A stretch of DNA of 64,000 bases from Escherichia phage iGC_PHA_EC001: sequence record OR437326.1, one strand, 5' to 3'. Under the pieces are notes generated by a model that saw only the letters and a list, made by a program, of their open reading frames with translations, did no database searches and had not been told where the DNA came from. A program made the translations under genes and the position numbers. Position 1 is the stretch's first letter; each line of letters opens with the position of its first letter. Below are positions 3,142 to 37,819 of this stretch, one piece after another.

Positions 3142-4083
3142 TTAATAACCTCCTTCAAAAGGCTTAACTACATGTTGATTAGCTTTAAAACGTTCAACAT
3201 AGTCGTTTTCGCCCATGTTTTCATATAGCTTAGTAACAACATAAAAGTTTTCCCAAGCATATTCCCTAAACCAACCACTAGTGATGGATGTGCAGACTTT
3301 AGATAAAGCCATTATAAAACTTTGCTTAGGGGTTGGACCTCCGATCTCTTCACCGAAAGGAATTTGTGAACGTTCCAAAGCCAAAACACACGCTTCTTCA
3401 TAAACACCTAACAGGCGCACATGTTTTGGTTGAGCAAAAAACTTTTCTTTGCTGGTCATAACTTCACTTCCATCTTTCATATAAGATTTATATGCTGGAG
3501 CATCCATTACCGCGATTGCTTCATGGATAGAATCATGATCATAAACATACGGAACCTCATCCCCTTTAAAGAAGTCTTTACTTTTTACGTTTAAGTTCGG
3601 ATGAGAGTAAGTGTATGTTTCTTTCTCACGCAACTCATAAATACTCTTAAGATTTTCTGGGATCTTTGCACCCAGTGACCGCATGAAATGAATATCTTTC
3701 ATAGTTTTAAAGAAGTGAGGACTATCCTTTTTAAAACGATGACTCATTTTAAGAAGGTAGAGCACATCTAAAGGAGCAACAACATGTCCAGCGTAAGTTC
3801 GACGAACATCATCAGAATCTTCACAATAGCTAATCAAAGCTTCTGTGCTATCTCCTTGAGAAGCAATATCGTATTCCAAATGTGCACCAGCTATCATTTT
3901 GACATGGCCTTTGTTTCCTTTACGTTCTACAAGTTCAACAAACTCCTCTTGAGAGAACATTTTTGATAATTCTTCCCACTCTTGTTCTGTACACAGGTAA
4001 TCTAAATCTACACAAGGGCGATACAAGTCTTTTCCCATGTCCATAGCATGAATTTGCAATGCACGGCTACCAATTAACACCAT
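3142..4083 (-). CDS. hypothetical protein with possible Pol-beta-type nucleotidyltransferase fold
   Basis: N-terminal LIGSRALQIH...CVDLDYL fits hG[GS]...DxD minimal nucleotidyltransferase signature; 313 aa; GAGGAG RBS. Confidence 0.45.
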   Translation of the reverse strand: MVLIGSRALQIHAMDMGKDLYRPCVDLDYLCTEQEWEELSKMFSQEEFVELVERKGNKGHVKMIAGAHLEYDIASQGDSTEALISYCEDSDDVRRTYAGHVVAPLDVLYLLKMSHRFKKDSPHFFKTMKDIHFMRSLGAKIPENLKSIYELREKETYTYSHPNLNVKSKDFFKGDEVPYVYDHDSIHEAIAVMDAPAYKSYMKDGSEVMTSKEKFFAQPKHVRLLGVYEEACVLALERSQIPFGEEIGGPTPKQSFIMALSKVCTSITSGWFREYAWENFYVVTKLYENMGENDYVERFKANQHVVKPFEGGY

Positions 4084-4107: not shown

Positions 4108-4142
4108 AGGTTAAGTTTATCAAGCTTCCAGATTCCTGTCAA
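4108..4142 (-). promoter_or_regulatory. putative sigma70-like promoter for leftward transcription
   Basis: minus strand TTGACA - 17 nt - TAAACT upstream of RBS of gene 3142-4083. Confidence 0.4.
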
Positions 4143-4149
4143 TAAAAAA

Positions 4150-4163
4150 CCCGCCGAAGCGGG
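4150..4163 (-). terminator. GC hairpin CCCGCCGAAGCGGG with flanking A/T runs, putative (possibly bidirectional) terminator
   Basis: palindromic stem, T-run on minus strand, A-run on plus strand. Confidence 0.5.
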
Positions 4164-4173
4164 TTATTATTTA

Positions 4174-4446
4174 CTAACACATTGAGGAAGAAGAGATCCA
4201 AACACCTCTTGTGGTTAAACCATTTTCATCCAACTCTACACCATAATCTTCACAAATGAAATCAATATAGTGATCTGCGGCTGGCGTTCCTGTAGGGTAA
4301 TAAGTTTCTCCGTTACCGTAGTCACCTATCCAAGCTTGTTCCTGAAACTGTTCACAAAGTTCTTCAATTTCCTTACGAAACTTTCTTTGTGCTTGTTCCA
4401 TCTCTTTAACTTTCTTTTTTATCAGCAGTTCGCCTTCAGACTCCAC
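4174..4446 (-). CDS. small acidic protein, paralog family member A (C-terminal W-I-SSSS-M-C)
   Basis: GTG start with AAGGAGAG RBS; C-terminus GVWISSSSMC shared with two neighbouring ORFs. Confidence 0.5.
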   Translation of the reverse strand: MESEGELLIKKKVKEMEQAQRKFRKEIEELCEQFQEQAWIGDYGNGETYYPTGTPAADHYIDFICEDYGVELDENGLTTRGVWISSSSMC

Positions 4447-4455
4447 AATCTCTCC

Positions 4456-4674
4456 TTAACAGCTACTACTGTGCCAAACGCCTTGAGAATTAACGACGAA
4501 ACCATCATCACCTTCACCATAACAAGAAGAGGATTGCCAATCTTCAAAACAGATTGCGTCATCTTCTAAACTAAGACCAAAACCAGCATCTTCAGCTTCT
4601 TTTGTAAGTTCGTCCACTAAAGCCATAATAGCTTGGGCTTTTTCAGTTAATTCTTCAACATTACGATAACTCAT
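4456..4674 (-). CDS. small acidic protein, paralog family member B (two W-x-SSS-C motifs)
   Basis: start at MSYRNVEEL after GAGGAGAAATACTA RBS; internal WQSSSC and C-terminal WHSSSC. Confidence 0.5.
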   Translation of the reverse strand: MSYRNVEELTEKAQAIMALVDELTKEAEDAGFGLSLEDDAICFEDWQSSSCYGEGDDGFVVNSQGVWHSSSC

Positions 4675-4943
4675 TAGTATTTCTCCTCTGGTTGGAAAAC
4701 GGAACGACAGGCCCACATAGAAGCTTCTTTCAACTTAGTCTTTGCTATTGAAATTTGGTCAAGGCGGGTGGATATATTGGTAGACTCTTCCAAATCTTCA
4801 CAATCATCCAGTTCAGTCCACAATTCAGACATTAGAGCATCAAAGATTAAGCCTAATCGAACTTCAGCATCTTTAATAGCATTCACTTTACCAATTTTGT
4901 CATCGGTATGCGGTTTATAACCTTTGATATCTTCGATTCCCAC
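4674..4943 (-). CDS. hypothetical protein
   Basis: ORF track 4674-4982; preferred start GTG after AGGAGGTAAA RBS, which avoids overlap with upstream gene. Confidence 0.4.
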   Translation of the reverse strand: MGIEDIKGYKPHTDDKIGKVNAIKDAEVRLGLIFDALMSELWTELDDCEDLEESTNISTRLDQISIAKTKLKEASMWACRSVFQPEEKY

Positions 4944-4954
4944 TTTACCTCCTA

Positions 4955-5152
4955 TTAACAACTTAAAGAAGATGGATGCCAATTTGTTCCAGTATTCTCA
5001 TTTTCATCTTCTGGATCATAATAACCACCCATCCCATATTCAGGGGAGAAACTGAAACCTTCACCAGTCTCGTCTGCTAACTGCTCTGCTTCCGCTAAAG
5101 CCTCATAAGCTGCTTTTACGGCTTCTTCTACTGTTTTAAACTTGGTCGTCAT
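4955..5152 (-). CDS. small acidic protein, paralog family member C (C-terminal W-H-PSSLS-C)
   Basis: RBS GGAGAGGAGAAATTTT before ATG; C-terminus NWHPSSLSC. Confidence 0.5.
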   Translation of the reverse strand: MTTKFKTVEEAVKAAYEALAEAEQLADETGEGFSFSPEYGMGGYYDPEDENENTGTNWHPSSLSC

Positions 5153-5426
5153 AAAATTTCTCCTCTCCTAAAGACATGTTGACATGAAATGCGCGGTATG
5201 TAAATTCGTTGTCCGTTGTGTTAGAATAAAACTCAAATTGAACAACACCATCTTGAGAAGACAGATACATGCCAATTTGAACTGTTCCTTCTGGTACCAG
5301 GTAAGCATACTCTGGGCGTAGTGTTACATTGTAAAAATAAAGTTCCCCAACACCCATTTCATCCCAAGCTTCCCAAGCGGTAACGAAGTTACTTTCAAAA
5401 CTTGTTACTGATCCGAACTCTGCCAT
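5136..5426 (-). CDS. hypothetical protein
   Basis: RBS GAGGAGG; 96 aa. Confidence 0.5.
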   Translation of the reverse strand: MAEFGSVTSFESNFVTAWEAWDEMGVGELYFYNVTLRPEYAYLVPEGTVQIGMYLSSQDGVVQFEFYSNTTDNEFTYRAFHVNMSLGEEKFYDDQV

Positions 5427-5917
5427 AAAACCTCCTCAATCTTGTAGTTTGACTCCATCTCCAACACATTTCCACGAACGTCTCTCCGAAGAAAGGCATA
5501 AGCTTTATTAGGTATTGTAGACTCATATTTAACCATATCTGGCACAGCAAAAGATACTACTACTCCTGCTGGGCTTCTGTCAAGAGCCTTATTAATATTT
5601 CTAAGGATATCGTTAGCCAAGATTTCTGCCAATTCTCCAAGAACGGTTTCGGTTATATCTTTATATCCCATTAAGTATTTGTTGATATCTTTCATCTCTG
5701 TATTGTTCAGAGTATAATCCAAAGGATAGAAATTCAAAGCGGAGTCACTTTTATGTGTCCACATGAAATGCACCCGATCCGAGCAGAATCGTAACCCTCT
5801 TTGAAGAATATCTTCTACAACAGGCAGAATTTCTTTTGTCACATCATTAACCATGTTGTAATCTAAGATTTCTGCCAAGTTTGTTCTTTGTTCACCACGT
5901 TTACGTTTAGGAATCAC
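5405..5917 (-). CDS. hypothetical protein
   Basis: GTG start with GAGGG RBS; 170 aa. Confidence 0.45.
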   Translation of the reverse strand: MIPKRKRGEQRTNLAEILDYNMVNDVTKEILPVVEDILQRGLRFCSDRVHFMWTHKSDSALNFYPLDYTLNNTEMKDINKYLMGYKDITETVLGELAEILANDILRNINKALDRSPAGVVVSFAVPDMVKYESTIPNKAYAFLRRDVRGNVLEMESNYKIEEVLWQSSDQ

Positions 5918-6488
5918 TTGTTATTGCCCTCATTACCAAAGGTCGTAGAAAATCGTAAATCTCTTGTTTTGTTTTCCCACGAATGTTTAAACAAGGAACA
6001 TTATTGGCTTTAGCTATCTTCCAAGCCGTAGCTGTTCCACCTTTTGCATCTCCATGTTTATCAGTATTAGCACAAGCCAACAAGAAACATGATGGAGCAG
6101 GATTCTCCAAATCTCTACCTAACACTTGATGCACATTACGTTGGTGCAATTTTCTAGCACCCTGCTTAAGCTTTTCATAGGCTGGGTGAACATCTTTGAT
6201 CCATTGCACAGAGATAGCATAGTTCATTGTATCTGGTTTTGCAAGAACAATAACATCCCCTGGAATCTGATTACCTTTGAAATTTTCCCAAGGAACATAA
6301 ATCTCCTTGTTAGTAGGATTTTCAGACTCTTGGACACCTGTTTCAAAAGCAGAATCACTACCCTCTGCCTTCCCAGACCTTAATTTAAACCCAAGGTTTG
6401 AAAGCCATTTCCCTATGCCTACCATCAAAGCCCACTCTTCTTCGGATATGTCTCTACTTCCAACTCCCGTATAGAACAGTTCTGCCAT
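5907..6488 (-). CDS. DprA/SLOG-like Rossmann-fold protein (putative nucleotide-binding)
   Basis: TGVGSRD ... SGKAEGSDSA resembles DprA/Smf motif (GSR ... SGxAxGID); start at MAELFY after GAGGTG RBS. Confidence 0.4.
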   Translation of the reverse strand: MAELFYTGVGSRDISEEEWALMVGIGKWLSNLGFKLRSGKAEGSDSAFETGVQESENPTNKEIYVPWENFKGNQIPGDVIVLAKPDTMNYAISVQWIKDVHPAYEKLKQGARKLHQRNVHQVLGRDLENPAPSCFLLACANTDKHGDAKGGTATAWKIAKANNVPCLNIRGKTKQEIYDFLRPLVMRAITSDS

Positions 6489-6495
6489 AATCACC

Positions 6496-6804
6496 TCAAC
6501 AAGTAATTTCAAAAGGTGTATACGGTTCCGTATTTCTCATGATCCAAGGACTGCTAGGATTGCTCGGATCATAAGGACCAAAAGGTTTTATGGTCGGTTG
6601 TGTTTCTTTCTTCTGAATCTCTTCAAAAATACGACGAAGTTCAGAATATTCTTGATCCACCATAAGATTCGGTGCATCTGATTCTACAGCTTGCAGGTTA
6701 TCTTCCTTAAGAACAATCTCACGAACAAGATTAACATCTTCTGTTTCTAAGATAACTTCTTTACGGATATTACCTACACTTTGAATAATTGTAATCTTAT
6801 ACAT
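6496..6804 (-). CDS. hypothetical protein
   Basis: RBS GAGGAGG; 102 aa. Confidence 0.5.
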   Translation of the reverse strand: MYKITIIQSVGNIRKEVILETEDVNLVREIVLKEDNLQAVESDAPNLMVDQEYSELRRIFEEIQKKETQPTIKPFGPYDPSNPSSPWIMRNTEPYTPFEITC

Positions 6805-7547
6805 TAATCCTCCTCAAGAGTTGAATAAAATTGAAGACCACCGTCCATATCGAAATAAGCAAATGTTAAGTTATTGTTGAACACAGATCCAGTATCCATA
6901 TAAACACGATTCGCATTGATAATAGGTGTTTTTACATAAGAGTGTCCATGAAACACATAATCCACACCCATCACAACAGGAAGTTTCATTCCCTCTTTAG
7001 CACAGTCTACCATATCTCTGTCCCACATAAGTGCTTCAGCAAAACGGTTTTCCTGTGTTTTTGTCATCTTCGAAATGTATTCTGGAATATCTGTTACAGG
7101 GAGATATTCCAAAGAAGATGGATACCCACCATGAATAAACGCAAGTTTCATGCCTCTGTAGTTAACAATGAGAACAACAGGTAAATCTTCTGTCATCATT
7201 GCTAAGGCTGTAGCTCCTTCTTCACCACATTCTTCAAAGACCGTATATCCTCCATTTTGATACCAACACTCGTAGTAGCTACGATCTCCTTCCAGCATAC
7301 CTTTAATCATCATGTCTTCATGATTACCACGAATAGCGTAGCGATTGTGTTTACGAGTAAATTCTAAAACACAACGAAAGTTTTGCTTTCCACGGTCAGT
7401 AAGATCTCCTAGAGATACAACCACATCTGTATCTCGGATACCTAACTTTGCCTTTCCTTTTTCATACAAATTATAACAACCGTGTAGATCTCCAATTATA
7501 AAAAGATCTTGATCGCTTTTAACAGTAATTTCTCTGTGTATGATCAC
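6804..7547 (-). CDS. Ser/Thr protein phosphatase (calcineurin-like metallophosphoesterase, PP-lambda type)
   Basis: motifs GDLHG, GDLTDRG, GNHE in canonical order; GTG start after GAGGAGG RBS. Confidence 0.75.
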   Translation of the reverse strand: MIIHREITVKSDQDLFIIGDLHGCYNLYEKGKAKLGIRDTDVVVSLGDLTDRGKQNFRCVLEFTRKHNRYAIRGNHEDMMIKGMLEGDRSYYECWYQNGGYTVFEECGEEGATALAMMTEDLPVVLIVNYRGMKLAFIHGGYPSSLEYLPVTDIPEYISKMTKTQENRFAEALMWDRDMVDCAKEGMKLPVVMGVDYVFHGHSYVKTPIINANRVYMDTGSVFNNNLTFAYFDMDGGLQFYSTLEED

Positions 7548-7883: not shown

Positions 7884-8456
7884 TCAAATTATTAACGAAA
7901 CCGCATGACTAAATCTTGGTTCAGATATAACCTCTGCTACAGTCACATATGTATCGTGCAGCCAAAAAGATTCTACTCTACAAACACAAATACCGTTGAT
8001 AATGAAATCTACACAGGCTTTATTATTTTCGCACACTTGTTGACTATAAACAACCCCTAAAGAGTCATAAAGTGATCTCACTGTTGCTACCATTTCATCT
8101 GTTTCGTCTTCCTGTGAAACAAAGAAAACGAATACAGACAAGTTATTAGCGAAAGTATTGCTATTCTCTACTTCAACCGACTTACAAGGTAAAAAGGAGT
8201 AATATTTACCGTTAGGTATCAATTTCGCCTCAACCTGGTTAAGTATGCTTTGAGATGGTTTTGTTACATAAAAAAGATTTTCTGTTGGGTTTTCAACATT
8301 GCTCCTTACTATGCAACGAGTGGGGTTCGAAGGATCAAAAACATGATCGAAATCGACACACACAGGTAAGTTAACAACTTTAAACTTTTTGCTAAGAATG
8401 CTTACTGCTGTAAAAATCAAACCAGCATTTATTTTGCCAGTGAAAGTTGAACGCAT
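7884..8456 (-). CDS. hypothetical protein
   Basis: start set at MRSTFTGK after CGAGGAG RBS; track ORF 7884-8474. Confidence 0.5.
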   Translation of the reverse strand: MRSTFTGKINAGLIFTAVSILSKKFKVVNLPVCVDFDHVFDPSNPTRCIVRSNVENPTENLFYVTKPSQSILNQVEAKLIPNGKYYSFLPCKSVEVENSNTFANNLSVFVFFVSQEDETDEMVATVRSLYDSLGVVYSQQVCENNKACVDFIINGICVCRVESFWLHDTYVTVAEVISEPRFSHAVSLII

Positions 8457-35901: not shown

Positions 35902-35976
35902 GGCCCTGTAGCTCAATGGGAGAGCTGTCGGCTCATAACCGATAGGTAGCTGGATCGAAACCAGCCAGGGCCACCA
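35902..35976 (+). tRNA. tRNA-Met (anticodon CAT; could alternatively be Ile2/lysidine)
   Basis: acceptor GGCCCTG/CAGGGCC, D-arm TAGCTCAATGGGAGAGC, anticodon loop CTCATAA, T-arm GCTGGATCGAAACCAGC, encoded CCA. Confidence 0.7.
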
Positions 35977-35978
35977 AA

Positions 35979-36053
35979 GTCTTTATGGTGTAATGGATAG
36001 CACAGGAGTCTTCTAAACTCTTAGTCAAGGTTCGATTCCTTGTAAAGACACCA
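35979..36053 (+). tRNA. tRNA-Arg (anticodon TCT)
   Basis: acceptor GTCTTTA/TAAAGAC, anticodon loop CTTCTAA, T-arm CAAGGTTCGATTCCTTG, CCA encoded. Confidence 0.7.
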
Positions 36054-36249
36054 GAACATTTTAACATGAATTAGCTCAAGTGATTTGAACCCACTACTGA
36101 TCATGGTGGCAGAGAATGAGGCAAGTATGTCAGACATTATAAACAAAGGCCACGGTTATATTAGAAGACATAAATGCTCGAAGAGCACCGTTCGTGGAGA
36201 ACGGGGGTTGGTGGAGTCACCATTCATGGTAAAATGTTTTAAAAAACTA

Positions 36250-36280
36250 TTGACAACAAACATTATTTTATGTTAGATTA
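36250..36280 (+). promoter_or_regulatory. sigma70-like promoter (AACTATTGACAA family, copy 2)
   Basis: TTGACA at 36250-36255, TAGATT 18 nt downstream, immediately upstream of tRNA-Ser. Confidence 0.45.
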
Positions 36281-36287
36281 TAAGTAT

Positions 36288-36378
36288 GGAAGGGCAAATC
36301 GATGTGGCGACGAAAACGGTCTTGAAAACCGCCGAGCTTGAAAGAGCCTTGGGAGTTCGACTCTCCCTCCTTCCGCCA
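36288..36378 (+). tRNA. tRNA-Ser (anticodon TGA), type II with long variable arm
   Basis: acceptor GGAAGGG/TCCTTCC, anticodon arm CGGTCTTGAAAACCG, T-arm GGGAGTTCGACTCTCCC, CCA. Confidence 0.65.
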
Positions 36379-36383
36379 GATTA

Positions 36384-36469
36384 GGTAGATTGGTGAAATG
36401 GTAGCCACGACAGTTTGCTAAACTGTAGTCGGAAACGGCGTGTAGGTTCGAGTCCTACATCTACCGCCA
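36384..36469 (+). tRNA. tRNA-Ser (anticodon GCT), type II
   Basis: acceptor GGTAGAT/ATCTACC, anticodon arm ACAGTTTGCTAAACTGT, T-arm GTAGGTTCGAGTCCTAC, CCA. Confidence 0.65.
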
Positions 36470-36599
36470 AGTTCTTTTTAATGTAGCTTACTTTAGCAGA
36501 GTAAATCTTCGGCAAGTGGCGGTAACCACTTTACCGATACCTCATAGTTAGTGGTCTGAACACTGGCTATTTTAAAAAGAATTTAAATATTAGTATTTA

Positions 36600-36687
36600 G
36601 GTGAGTTAATTCCGTAGGGGTAGCGGGGCAGACTGTAAATCTGTTATCATTGCGATTCGGGTGGTTCGACTCCATCACTCACCACCA
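36600..36687 (+). tRNA. tRNA-Tyr (anticodon GTA), type II
   Basis: acceptor GGTGAGT/ACTCACC, anticodon arm GCAGACTGTAAATCTGT (near identical to E. coli tRNA-Tyr), T-arm GGTGGTTCGACTCCATC, CCA. Confidence 0.65.
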
Positions 36688-36693
36688 AATTAA

Positions 36694-36779
36694 GATGAGT
36701 TGGCTGAATGGTTTAAGCGGCGGACTGTTAATCCGTGTTCGAAAGAACAATATAGGTTCGAATCCTATACTCATCGCCA
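36694..36779 (+). tRNA. tRNA with anticodon GTT (Asn by anticodon) but atypical long variable arm
   Basis: acceptor GATGAGT/ACTCATC, anticodon stem-loop GCGGA-CTGTTAA-TCCGT at positions 27-43, extra hairpin GTTCGAAAGAAC, T-arm ATAGGTTCGAATCCTAT, CCA. Confidence 0.45.
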
Positions 36780-36786
36780 GAATTAT

Positions 36787-36862
36787 GGACTTGTAGAGTT
36801 AAGGTAAACCCCAGTAGCCAAGAGGCTTCTGGAATTGCAGGTATCGAATCCTGCCGAGTCCC
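36787..36862 (+). ncRNA. tRNA-like element without canonical anticodon arm (possible pseudo-tRNA or small RNA)
   Basis: acceptor pairing GGACTTG/CGAGTCC and T-arm-like GCAGGTATCGAATCCTGC, but central region folds as CCAG-T-AGCC-AAGA-GGCT-T-CTGG hairpin. Confidence 0.3.
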
Positions 36863-36868
36863 AGCTTT

Positions 36869-36943
36869 GCTCCTATAGTATAATGGCTATTACAACGGTT
36901 TTGTAATCCGTGGATCTCTGTTCGATTCAGAGTGGGAGCACCA
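36869..36943 (+). tRNA. tRNA-Thr (anticodon TGT)
   Basis: acceptor GCTCCTA/TGGGAGC, anticodon loop TTTGTAA, T-arm CTCTGTTCGATTCAGAG, CCA. Confidence 0.7.
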
Positions 36944-37211
36944 ACACAACATTAAGGGCACTGTGATTGATCGTCGTATCCTGTGCACAAGGTCTGTTCG
37001 AAAGACAGTGTTCTTAGTATTGTGTTGATCACAAAAAGAGTCACCTGAAACTTGACCGGAGTAGGGTTGGATGGGGTAAAGAAGAAGCGGATTCTCCCAT
37101 CGACGTGATAGTTTTCCAGTGTTGCAAGCGACACCCAGGAGGTTAATCACAACCGAACGTAGGGCTAGTCACCCAAAGGGATACTCGTCACTGTCCCACT
37201 CAATAAAACTA

Positions 37212-37242
37212 TTGACAACCAATAGTAAAATGTAGTATAGTA
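37212..37242 (+). promoter_or_regulatory. sigma70-like promoter (AACTATTGACAA family, copy 3)
   Basis: TTGACA at 37212-37217, TATAGT 18 nt downstream, upstream of tRNA-Gly. Confidence 0.45.
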
Positions 37243-37252
37243 AATATGTAGG

Positions 37253-37326
37253 GCGTTCTTGGTGTAGCGGTAGCATTCCGTCCTTCCAAGTCGGCGGCAC
37301 GAGTTCGATCCTCGTAGAACGCTCCA
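37253..37326 (+). tRNA. tRNA-Gly (anticodon TCC)
   Basis: acceptor GCGTTCT/AGAACGC, anticodon loop CTTCCAA, T-arm ACGAGTTCGATCCTCGT, CCA. Confidence 0.65.
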
Positions 37327-37424
37327 AATTATTTAATAAAGGGTTGCCAGAAAACTTTCTCTTTTACTCATGGTTTTCTCCTTCTCTCACACTTCTTCTG
37401 GTTGCCCTTCATTAAATGATTTAT

Positions 37425-37500
37425 TGGTTTGTAGTGTAGTCAGGTAGCACACGACACTTTGACTGTCGTAGGTTTGGTTCAAATCCAGACAGACCAGCCA
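37425..37500 (+). tRNA. tRNA-Gln (anticodon TTG)
   Basis: acceptor TGGTTTG/CAGACCA, anticodon arm CGACACTTTGACTGTCG, T-arm TTTGGTTCAAATCCAGA, CCA. Confidence 0.7.
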
Positions 37501-37505
37501 TATAA

Positions 37506-37582
37506 CGGAATTTAGCTCAGTTTGGTAGAGCATACGCTTTGGGAGCGTAGGGTCGCAGGTTCGAATCCTGCAATTCCGACCA
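37506..37582 (+). tRNA. tRNA-Pro (anticodon TGG)
   Basis: acceptor CGGAATT/AATTCCG, D-arm GCTCAGTTTGGTAGAGC, anticodon arm TACGCTTTGGGAGCGTA, T-arm GCAGGTTCGAATCCTGC, CCA. Confidence 0.75.
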
Positions 37583-37588
37583 ATTTAA

Positions 37589-37662
37589 TGTTTCGTAGTT
37601 CAATGGTAGAACCCACGACTGATAATCGTGAGATACAAGTTCGATTCTTGTCGAAACAACCA
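37589..37662 (+). tRNA. tRNA-Ile (anticodon GAT)
   Basis: acceptor TGTTTCG/CGAAACA, anticodon arm CACGACTGATAATCGTG, T-arm ACAAGTTCGATTCTTGT, CCA. Confidence 0.75.
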
Positions 37663-37664
37663 GT

Positions 37665-37734
37665 TTCCCGTTAGACTTACAGGATAAGAGTTCCACAACT
37701 TATTGTGATGCTGGTTCGAATCCAGCACGGGATA
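37665..37734 (+). ncRNA. tRNA-like element, anticodon not assignable
   Basis: acceptor TTCCCGT/ACGGGAT (1:72 mismatch) and canonical T-arm GCTGGTTCGAATCCAGC, but no 5-bp/7-nt anticodon stem-loop could be folded (CACAA-CTTA-TTGTG tetraloop hairpin instead); no encoded CCA. Confidence 0.3.
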
Positions 37735-37740
37735 CCTAAT

Positions 37741-37819
37741 AGCGGGATAGAGGAGTCTGGTCGTCCTCGCCAGTTTCATATGCTGGAGATCATCGGTTCA
37801 AATCCGATTCCCGCCTCCA
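37741..37819 (+). tRNA. tRNA-Met-like (anticodon CAT) with unpaired 1:72 and TTCAAAT T-loop (possible initiator-type)
   Basis: acceptor AGCGGGA/TCCCGCC (A1 x C72), anticodon arm CCAGT-TTCATAT-GCTGG, T-arm ATCGGTTCAAATCCGAT, CCA. Confidence 0.5.

Follow-up and report, generated by a model that had tools for sequence, protein, structure and literature searches.

Small acidic phage proteins ending in Trp-x-Ser-Ser-x-x-Cys are encoded beside a nucleotidyltransferase-like gene, their probable partner

In the stretch of 64,000 nucleotides from Escherichia phage iGC_PHA_EC001 that was analysed here (sequence record OR437326.1, hereafter the window), three small genes code for members of a family of acidic proteins which is nearly always encoded beside one nucleotidyltransferase-like gene. 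The three members, proteins A, B and C, correspond to gp191, gp190 and gp188 of Escherichia phage phAPEC8, and the neighbouring gene corresponds to its gp192, a name also used below for the enzyme. The small proteins probably act together with this nucleotidyltransferase in some way. The window matched Escherichia phages tuntematon and phAPEC8 (Phapecoctavirus, Stephanstirmvirinae) with 99.6–99.7% identity over the region, and by this measure it is a phAPEC8-like Phapecoctavirus.

Three closely spaced leftward open reading frames (ORFs) of this region had been singled out in an earlier note, made from the letters alone, as coding for acidic proteins with a common tail. The ORFs (Table 1) are real genes in that they match annotated coding sequences (CDSs) of phAPEC8, where each is called "hypothetical protein", and each of them is preceded by a Shine-Dalgarno-like sequence. 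All three lie within 1 kb, as described, but they are not contiguous, a homolog of Vs.4/Acb2 (gp189) being encoded between the second and the third. The products are acidic, with isoelectric points (pI) of 4.40 (A), 4.05 (B) and 4.05 (C), and their C-termini read GVWISSSSMC (A), GVWHSSSC (B) and NWHPSSLSC (C), exactly as given in the note, including the second, internal copy in the middle protein (DWQSSSC).

Protein C is of the canonical family type, with an N-terminal helix, an F-x-F strand, a YGMGG loop, an acidic linker and the NWHPSSLSC tail. In protein A the loop reads GDYGNGETYYP and is followed by the GVWISSSSMC tail; homologs of this subtype with 42–57% identity were found in the T4-like phages Entb_45 and PEi20. 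Protein B is of a double-motif type, in which the internal DWQSSSC is joined straight to the YGEG loop and the chain ends in VWHSSSC; the same subtype was also found in JS10, 44RR2.8t and BUDD. The Y-G-x-G-G/E loop common to the three proteins is YGMGG in C, YGNGE in A and YGEGD in B, and the spacing from Trp to the terminal Cys is shorter in B (WHSSSC) than in A (WISSSSMC) and C (WHPSSLSC).

The frequency of such endings was estimated with the 786 six-frame ORFs of at least 35 amino acids in the window, using the pattern W-x-[SPA]-S-[SNL]-x(0-2)-C at the chain end and 2000 random draws. The pattern closed three of the 786 ORFs, the three clustered within 1 kb, against an expected number of 0.0036, and three or more were obtained in none of the 2000 draws. 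The tail motif in three ORFs is far above chance.

All three proteins matched PHROG 899, with E-values of 5e-14 (A), 7e-6 (B) and 1.4e-13 (C), and because of this common match they can be regarded as true paralogs, in agreement with the proposal of divergent paralogs sharing a tail. The scores against the family profile (A2) were 3e-28 (A), 3e-18 (B) and 2e-31 (C). PHROG 899 is the only catalogued family that contains A, B and C, and no function, motif description or context is attached to it; its profile has 221 positions, of which the three proteins match only the C-terminal 70–75 (about 148–221).

A profile of 16 members was searched against 1.84 billion cluster representatives with a cut-off of E ≤ 1e-3. 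The search returned 551 clusters (50% identity), nearly all of them of 60–150 amino acids and aligned to the very last residue. Cys was terminal in 169 of the 173 small representatives (98%). Of these 169, all have Ser at −3, 163 also have it at −4, and 162 have Trp at −7; in 93 of them Cys occurred only at the chain end. The Y-G-x-G-G/E loop was present in 158 of 169 family members, and the median pI was 4.4. The consensus begins with an amphipathic N-terminal helix (..AYAAL.EAE.IADE.G) and continues with F-x-F and Y-G-M-G-G-x-Y-x-P; a variable acidic insert, about 8–60 residues long and often holding extra W-x-S-S repeats, then leads to G-W-x-[SPA]-S-S-x-x-C. Three subtypes matching A, B and C of the window recur across phages. 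The hosts of the family phages, which are large lytic and jumbo phages, include Enterobacteria, Acinetobacter, Aeromonas, Pseudomonas and Xanthomonas, and many further members came from metagenomes. The tail is the best-conserved feature of the family, in over 500 clusters drawn from very different phages. A lack of such conservation among related phages had been named by the earlier note as one finding that would refute its claim, and the refutation fails decisively.

The family thus defined by its profile is large, unnamed and phage-restricted, made up of small acidic proteins that end almost invariably in Trp-x-Ser-Ser-x-x-Cys. The earlier remark that it is not a described family was borne out: scans of the three proteins against Pfam, NCBIfam and PADLOC gave sub-threshold noise only, the names of members in the source databases were all "hypothetical" or "uncharacterized", and no paper or database entry was found that describes the family, the motif or the linkage to DUF7277/DUF7275, the motif-string query being swamped by acronyms. 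Sequence searches of the PDB, with the profile as well as with single sequences, turned up nothing but designed helical bundles, matches that stem from the Ala/Glu-rich helix. Lipidation, one of the uses suggested for the tail, does not fit in its CaaX form, which needs Cys fourth from the end, whereas 169 of 173 representatives carry it as their final residue. A carrier of the ubiquitin-like, ThiS or MoaD kind was also rejected, as the beta-grasp fold ending in Gly-Gly was not found, and fusion proteins were dropped as functional hints, since the long matches were coiled-coil or NB-ARC-like false positives and the motif occurred in no enzyme.

The structure of the 65-residue protein C was modelled with AlphaFold2 from a 70-sequence alignment. 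The model showed a compact fold (predicted local distance difference test, pLDDT, 87.6; predicted template-modelling score, pTM, 0.68) with a helix at residues 8–29, strands at 33–38, 41–45 and 58–60, and a helical turn at 61–64. The first two strands flank the YG turn, the third strand is formed by W-H-P and the helical turn by S-S-L-S; in the tail the pLDDT is only about 70. The coiled-coil-like N-terminal segment of the earlier description is recovered as a predicted helix, but this helix packs on the beta-sheet and no coiled coil is formed. Likewise the tail is not a floppy docking tag in the model; it is predicted to be part of the fold, as third strand and terminal helical turn, with the variable acidic segment as an insert between strands 2 and 3. 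No relative of this fold was found among solved structures.

In the B subtype (protein B of the window, JS10, 44RR2.8t and BUDD) the internal W-x-SS-x-C is fused directly before the YG loop, and because of this the tail and the loop may be expected to lie together. A free C-terminus is likely to matter because 98% of members end precisely at Cys, and a purely structural role would not demand so strict a stop. Both observations argue for a single functional site made up of the terminal Cys, the Ser pair and the YGxGG loop. A common site of recognition or modification, as had been proposed, fits the strict Cys ending and the tight linkage to the nucleotidyltransferase-like gene shown below.

A tail of this kind also brings to mind ribosomally synthesised and post-translationally modified peptide (RiPP) precursors, or sulfur- or thiol-carriers, with an N-terminal leader and a Ser-Ser...Cys end that is chemically processed to a lanthionine or aminovinyl-cysteine (AviCys)-like ring, a lactone or a persulfide carrier. 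The tandem "precursors" next to one enzyme, the invariant C-terminal Ser/Cys pattern with its terminal Cys, and a weak NCBIfam match (E 0.05, 13.5 bits, below the cutoff of 25) between protein B and a family of class IV lanthipeptides are in line with this. However, among the neighbours in the window and in related loci no known maturase was found (LanB/C/M, radical S-adenosylmethionine (SAM) enzyme, YcaO, flavoprotein decarboxylase or cysteine desulfurase), and no export or protease genes were linked; a compact fold that takes in the tail is predicted, and the conserved part is the would-be core, whereas in known precursor families it is the leader. Such processing is very improbable.

The DUF7277/DUF7275 gene lies directly downstream of protein A in the window, and a weak tblastn match of protein C pointed to the T4-like Acinetobacter phage Acj61, which has the same arrangement: three small genes ending in WYPSSESC, WYNSSESC and WSSSYE, and then a DUF7275 homolog. 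The loci seeded with the small proteins were those of the window/phAPEC8, of Acj61 and of eight metagenomic seeds, nine of them assessable (seven metagenomic seeds); three contigs of this set are short and only the first 36–195 enzyme residues are visible. In all nine assessable loci the enzyme gene lies on the same strand and at most about 1.7 kb downstream, often at 1–66 bp. In the window it follows protein A at 90 bp.

The converse set was seeded with the enzyme (at least 39% identity to that of the window). Small genes were found in all five phage genomes of this set (40–49% identity), with five copies in JS10, two in 44RR2.8t, three in DLP1 and three in Xanthomonas phage BUDD, where they are downstream of the enzyme gene; phiPsa381 was also positive. 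Among 185,579 bacterial and archaeal genomes the enzyme was matched nine times, each time on a contig of a metagenome-assembled genome (MAG), and clear small genes lay just upstream of it in eight of these contigs, a degenerate copy in the ninth. On a 369-kb jumbo phage contig nine tandem paralogs directly precede the enzyme gene; the number of paralogs per phage ranges from one to nine. The linkage spans unrelated phages: Stephanstirmvirinae, several genera of Straboviridae, Otagovirus and the 369-kb jumbo phage.

The small family was absent beside five distant enzyme homologs (below about 37% identity) of a Streptomyces, a Gordonia, a Roseobacter and two Vibrio phages. At three of these five loci a different small acidic neighbour with the motif GGGEGGxEY...FK...YY(S/N)(S/Y)(W/Y/H) was observed, in Streptomyces phage Beuffert and in Vibrio phages K408 and phi-Grn1 (L016 3582–4274; L019 3674–4039; L025 2570–2866), which suggests a general pairing of DUF7275 enzymes with small acidic proteins.

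The enzyme gp192 carries the Pfam domains DUF7277 and DUF7275. Its AlphaFold2 model (pLDDT 89.7, pTM 0.82) showed a Pol-beta nucleotidyltransferase fold which, on comparison of the model, is structurally closest to MenT1, among the MenT/AbiEii class of tRNA nucleotidyltransferase toxins. The nearest structural relatives act on transfer RNA (tRNA) or small molecules. No matches were obtained in a PDB sequence search, Pfam DUF1814/AbiEii was not matched by gp192, and no AbiEii family was matched at E ≤ 1 by any of 29 homologs; because of this the relation of gp192 to MenT is one of fold only. Across the 29 homologs the conserved residues are G5-S6, D26-x-D28, E70, K112, H115, H183-D184, H187, E229-E230, E237-R238 and KVC264TSITSGWFR, of which G-S, D-x-D, K112, H115, H183-D184 and E229-E230 persist in every homolog or almost every one, the distant ones included. 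Of the 11 partner-bearing enzymes compared, 9 have E or D at the third-carboxylate position (E70), and K112 and H115 lie on a conserved helix. G5-S6, D26-x-D28, E70 and K112 can be likened to MenT motifs I–IV by pattern only. As judged from the model, gp192 would be nucleotidyltransferase-like with its catalytic-type residues intact.

The most conserved block of the enzyme is KVCTSITSGWFR. Its Cys264 is present in 11 of 11 enzymes with W-SS-C partners, and the position is Ile (K-T-I-T-S) in four of the five distant enzymes that have no such partner; the exception, DSS3_VP1, keeps Cys with no partner within 3 kb.

Toxins of the MenT family attach nucleotides to the 3′ ends of tRNA, and MenA1, a protein of 68 amino acids (7.4 kDa) with a long N-terminal helix, is encoded upstream of MenT1 and neutralises it; MenA1 covers electropositive active-site cavities of MenT1 and induces auto-phosphorylation of an active-site Thr (PMC10435456, PMC11375011). 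A partnership of gp192 with the small proteins is favoured because of the two-way linkage across unrelated phages, the fold class of the enzyme, and the size, acidity and N-terminal helix of the partners; the covariation of Cys264 is a further, weak hint. By analogy, the small proteins may be MenA1-like regulators of gp192-type enzymes, a reading that is preferred here but held tentatively. Each small protein would dock on the nucleic-acid-binding, active-site face of the enzyme and present a composite site formed by the carboxylate of the terminal Cys, the Ser-Ser pair and the YGxGG loop. It would regulate the enzyme, most likely by inhibition or timed gating, as the 68-residue MenA1 does with MenT1, and it would be adjusted through the number of paralogs (1–9 per phage) and through the variable acidic insert. 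What we infer here is that the partners bind physically, in which direction the effect runs (inhibitor or substrate), that tRNA is the target, and any role in infection.

Several observations weigh against regulation of the MenA1 type. Up to nine diverged paralogs per enzyme are unusual for an antitoxin-like regulator. A strong terminator (4165–4148) and a promoter-like site (4142–4114) separate the gene of protein A from that of the enzyme in the window, and in BUDD the gene order is reversed. The small proteins have no sequence or fold similarity to MenA1 or AbiEi. The enzyme itself matches MenT at the level of the fold only, with no Pfam DUF1814 match, and for that reason tRNA as its target is a guess by analogy. 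The covariation of Cys264 with the partner amounts to a single clade-level transition; it is weak and could be phylogenetic coincidence. Finally, conserved adjacency shows a functional link and does not fix its nature.

The same gene linkage would result if the small proteins were substrates covalently modified by the adjacent enzyme, so that diversified small effectors are switched on and off. The modification could be nucleotidylylation or phosphorylation of the invariant Ser, the loop Tyr or the terminal Cys. The tail, with its invariant Ser-Ser and strictly terminal Cys, offers suitable acceptors, many paralogous acceptors beside one enzyme are more natural than many antitoxins, and Pol-beta-fold enzymes are generally known to modify proteins. 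MenT-family enzymes can transfer phosphate to an active-site Ser/Thr (PMC11375011). A Metallophos phosphatase gene is located directly upstream in loci L006/L007 and 2.3 kb upstream in the window, but this association is seen in 2–3 loci only. The predicted partial burial of the tail as strand and helical turn, at a pLDDT of about 70, and the targets of the nearest structural relatives of gp192, which are tRNA or small molecules and not proteins, speak against modification as well. We regard the substrate reading, the main rival, as on the unlikely side. In a more specific and rather doubtful form of it, the module may be a protein-modification or thiol-relay system peculiar to phages, in which the invariant Cys264 block acts on the Ser-Ser...Cys-COOH ends by nucleotidylylation, phosphorylation or Cys-Cys transfer and gives switchable effectors or carriers in host takeover.

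The earlier note had also put forward free-standing host-targeting or anti-defence effectors, a proposal which missed the key context of the adjacent DUF7277/DUF7275 enzyme gene. In its present form this explanation would make the small proteins independent early accessory or anti-defence proteins, for example acidic nucleic-acid mimics or ligand sponges directed at host targets, brought next to the enzyme in a shared mobile cassette. They are indeed small, acidic and arranged in diversified paralog arrays, the region of small ORFs is of an early type, and a site for a small ligand could be built from the Gly-rich loop together with Ser and Cys. Genes of related interest are also close by: an Acb2/Vs.4 sponge gene inside the array, Sir2-like and methyltransferase genes nearby, and NAD (nicotinamide adenine dinucleotide)-salvage genes near related loci in Acj61 and K408. 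An anti-defence function of A, B and C is suggested by the inserted Acb2 gene only. On the other hand, about 23 loci of unrelated phage groups retain this one enzyme as a neighbour while the other neighbours change, no defence or anti-defence model was matched, and the strict C-terminal Cys is left without explanation. Independent effectors are unlikely on balance, and regulation of the enzyme by its small neighbours is still preferred.

Table 1. Features of the window around the genes for proteins A, B and C.
Feature	Position	Strand	Evidence
Small protein A, 90 aa, phAPEC8 gp191	4174..4446	−	ORF, annotated CDS, GTG start, PHROG 899 match
Small protein B, 72 aa, phAPEC8 gp190	4456..4674	−	ORF, annotated CDS, PHROG 899 match
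Small protein C, 65 aa, phAPEC8 gp188	4955..5152	−	ORF, annotated CDS, PHROG 899 match
Vs.4/Acb2 homolog, phAPEC8 gp189, not a family member	4674..4943	−	Pfam and PDB matches
Partner gene, 313 aa, phAPEC8 gp192, DUF7277 + DUF7275	3142..4083	−	Pfam
Intrinsic terminator-like hairpin, AACCCGC-TTCG-GCGGGTT then T-run	4148..4165	−	Sequence; phAPEC8 annotation also terminator
Promoter-like site, TTGACA, 17 nt, TAAACT, with TG	4114..4142	−	Consensus match only
DprA-like (SLOG-type) gene	5907..6488	−	PHROG 768, 2.3e-62

The terminator-like hairpin closes the transcription unit that holds the small genes, and the promoter-like site, predicted from its consensus match, stands directly upstream of gp192. 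The gene inserted between those of B and C, gp189, is annotated only as hypothetical in phAPEC8; it matched Pfam Acb2_Tad1_hairpin (1.5e-19) and PDB 7UQ2 (E 1.9e-42), and from these matches it can be taken as a close homolog of T4 Vs.4/Acb2, an anti-CBASS (cyclic-oligonucleotide-based antiphage signalling system) cyclic-nucleotide sponge. Membership of A, B and C in the Acb2/Tad1 sponges was rejected, as the Pfam hairpin model was matched by the gp189 gene alone.

Neighbours other than the enzyme vary from locus to locus. The DprA-like gene adjoins the module in three unrelated phages only, that of the window, Acj61 (L002 2298–2894) and BUDD (L023 1905–2366), and was dropped as a core component, being absent from the other loci examined. 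The calcineurin-like Metallophos phosphatase gene (6804–7547, minus strand, in the window) was found near the module only in the window, in L006/7/8 and in DSS3_VP1 (L018 265–825), and directly upstream of a small gene in one T4-like metagenomic phage (L006/L007; L006 6152–6823); with 2–3 loci it was likewise dropped. RNA ligase genes recur near DUF7275 genes (L006, L013, L016, L018). The trends for Metallophos and RNA ligase neighbours are weak.

Further observations were made in the surroundings of the module. Just downstream of gp192, at about 1–2752 of the window (minus strand; L001 82–882, 2070–2753), the phAPEC8 annotation places Sir2-like and DNA methyltransferase genes, which would fit a region of accessory or host-interaction genes. 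Two genes upstream of protein C, gp186 (170 amino acids, 5405–5917, minus strand; PHROG 8569, unknown function) ends in EEVLWQSSDQ, a W-x-S-S tail with no terminal Cys; the family profile was not matched, and the resemblance may be coincidental. A "histidyl tRNA synthetase" of 190 amino acids in the phAPEC8 RefSeq record (window 7884–8456, minus strand) gave no Pfam match at E ≤ 0.01, and the label looks doubtful. Ten tRNA genes are clustered at 35902–37819 on the plus strand (Met, Arg, Ser, Asn, Thr, Gly, Gln, Pro, Ile, Met); they are pertinent only if the MenT-like enzyme acts on tRNA.

The family described here is wholly unannotated and widespread, bears one of the sharpest C-terminal signatures among phage "hypothetical" proteins, and is joined by a constant enzymatic partner whose fold is related to that of tRNA-modifying toxins. 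What was a nameless run of small ORFs becomes in this way a testable two-component system, through which two Pfam DUFs and one PHROG would gain a role. Should the enzyme act on tRNA, the pair bears on the means by which phages that carry tRNA sets of their own control or protect translation; should the tail undergo chemical modification, a new protein-tagging chemistry would be at hand, and modification or a thiol relay would mean that large lytic phages have a new kind of system made of an enzyme and tagged proteins.

Several known systems invite comparison with this module. In the type VII toxin-antitoxin pair MntA-HepT, MntA AMPylates HepT, a HEPN ribonuclease that is modified on Tyr, and GlnE and GlnD also modify Tyr. 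In these systems, as in the phages, a Pol-beta-fold enzyme gene stands by the gene of a small protein, and MntA, which nucleotidylylates HepT, is the model for the small proteins as substrates; unlike HepT, the phage proteins have no HEPN fold and no R-x4-6-H ribonuclease motif. The Acb2/Vs.4 sponges are alike in being small phage proteins of the same gene string, but A, B and C gave no Acb2/Tad1 Pfam match and the predicted fold of C differs. The closest parallel is MenA1-MenT1 of M. tuberculosis, where a small protein with a long helix (residues 8–29 of 65 in protein C) is likewise encoded upstream of a MenT-like nucleotidyltransferase, and the enzyme has a G-S / D-x-D / acidic / Lys series that can be likened to that of MenT1 and AbiE by pattern only. 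The phage proteins have no sequence or structural homology to MenA1 (PDB 8AN5) or AbiEi, their genes form arrays of 1–9 paralogs, and their invariant W-x-SS-x-x-Cys-COOH end has no counterpart in MenA1. The enzyme gp192 differs from AbiEii/DUF1814 in giving no Pfam DUF1814 match and in its much larger, distinct C-terminal domain (DUF7275), and the phage module resides in genomes of lytic and jumbo phages, not in bacterial chromosomes as MenAT1 and AbiE do. The module resembles the pairs of a small partner and a nucleotidyltransferase known from MenAT1 and AbiE, and it differs from them in partner family, enzyme subfamily, phage location, arrays and Cys-terminal signature.

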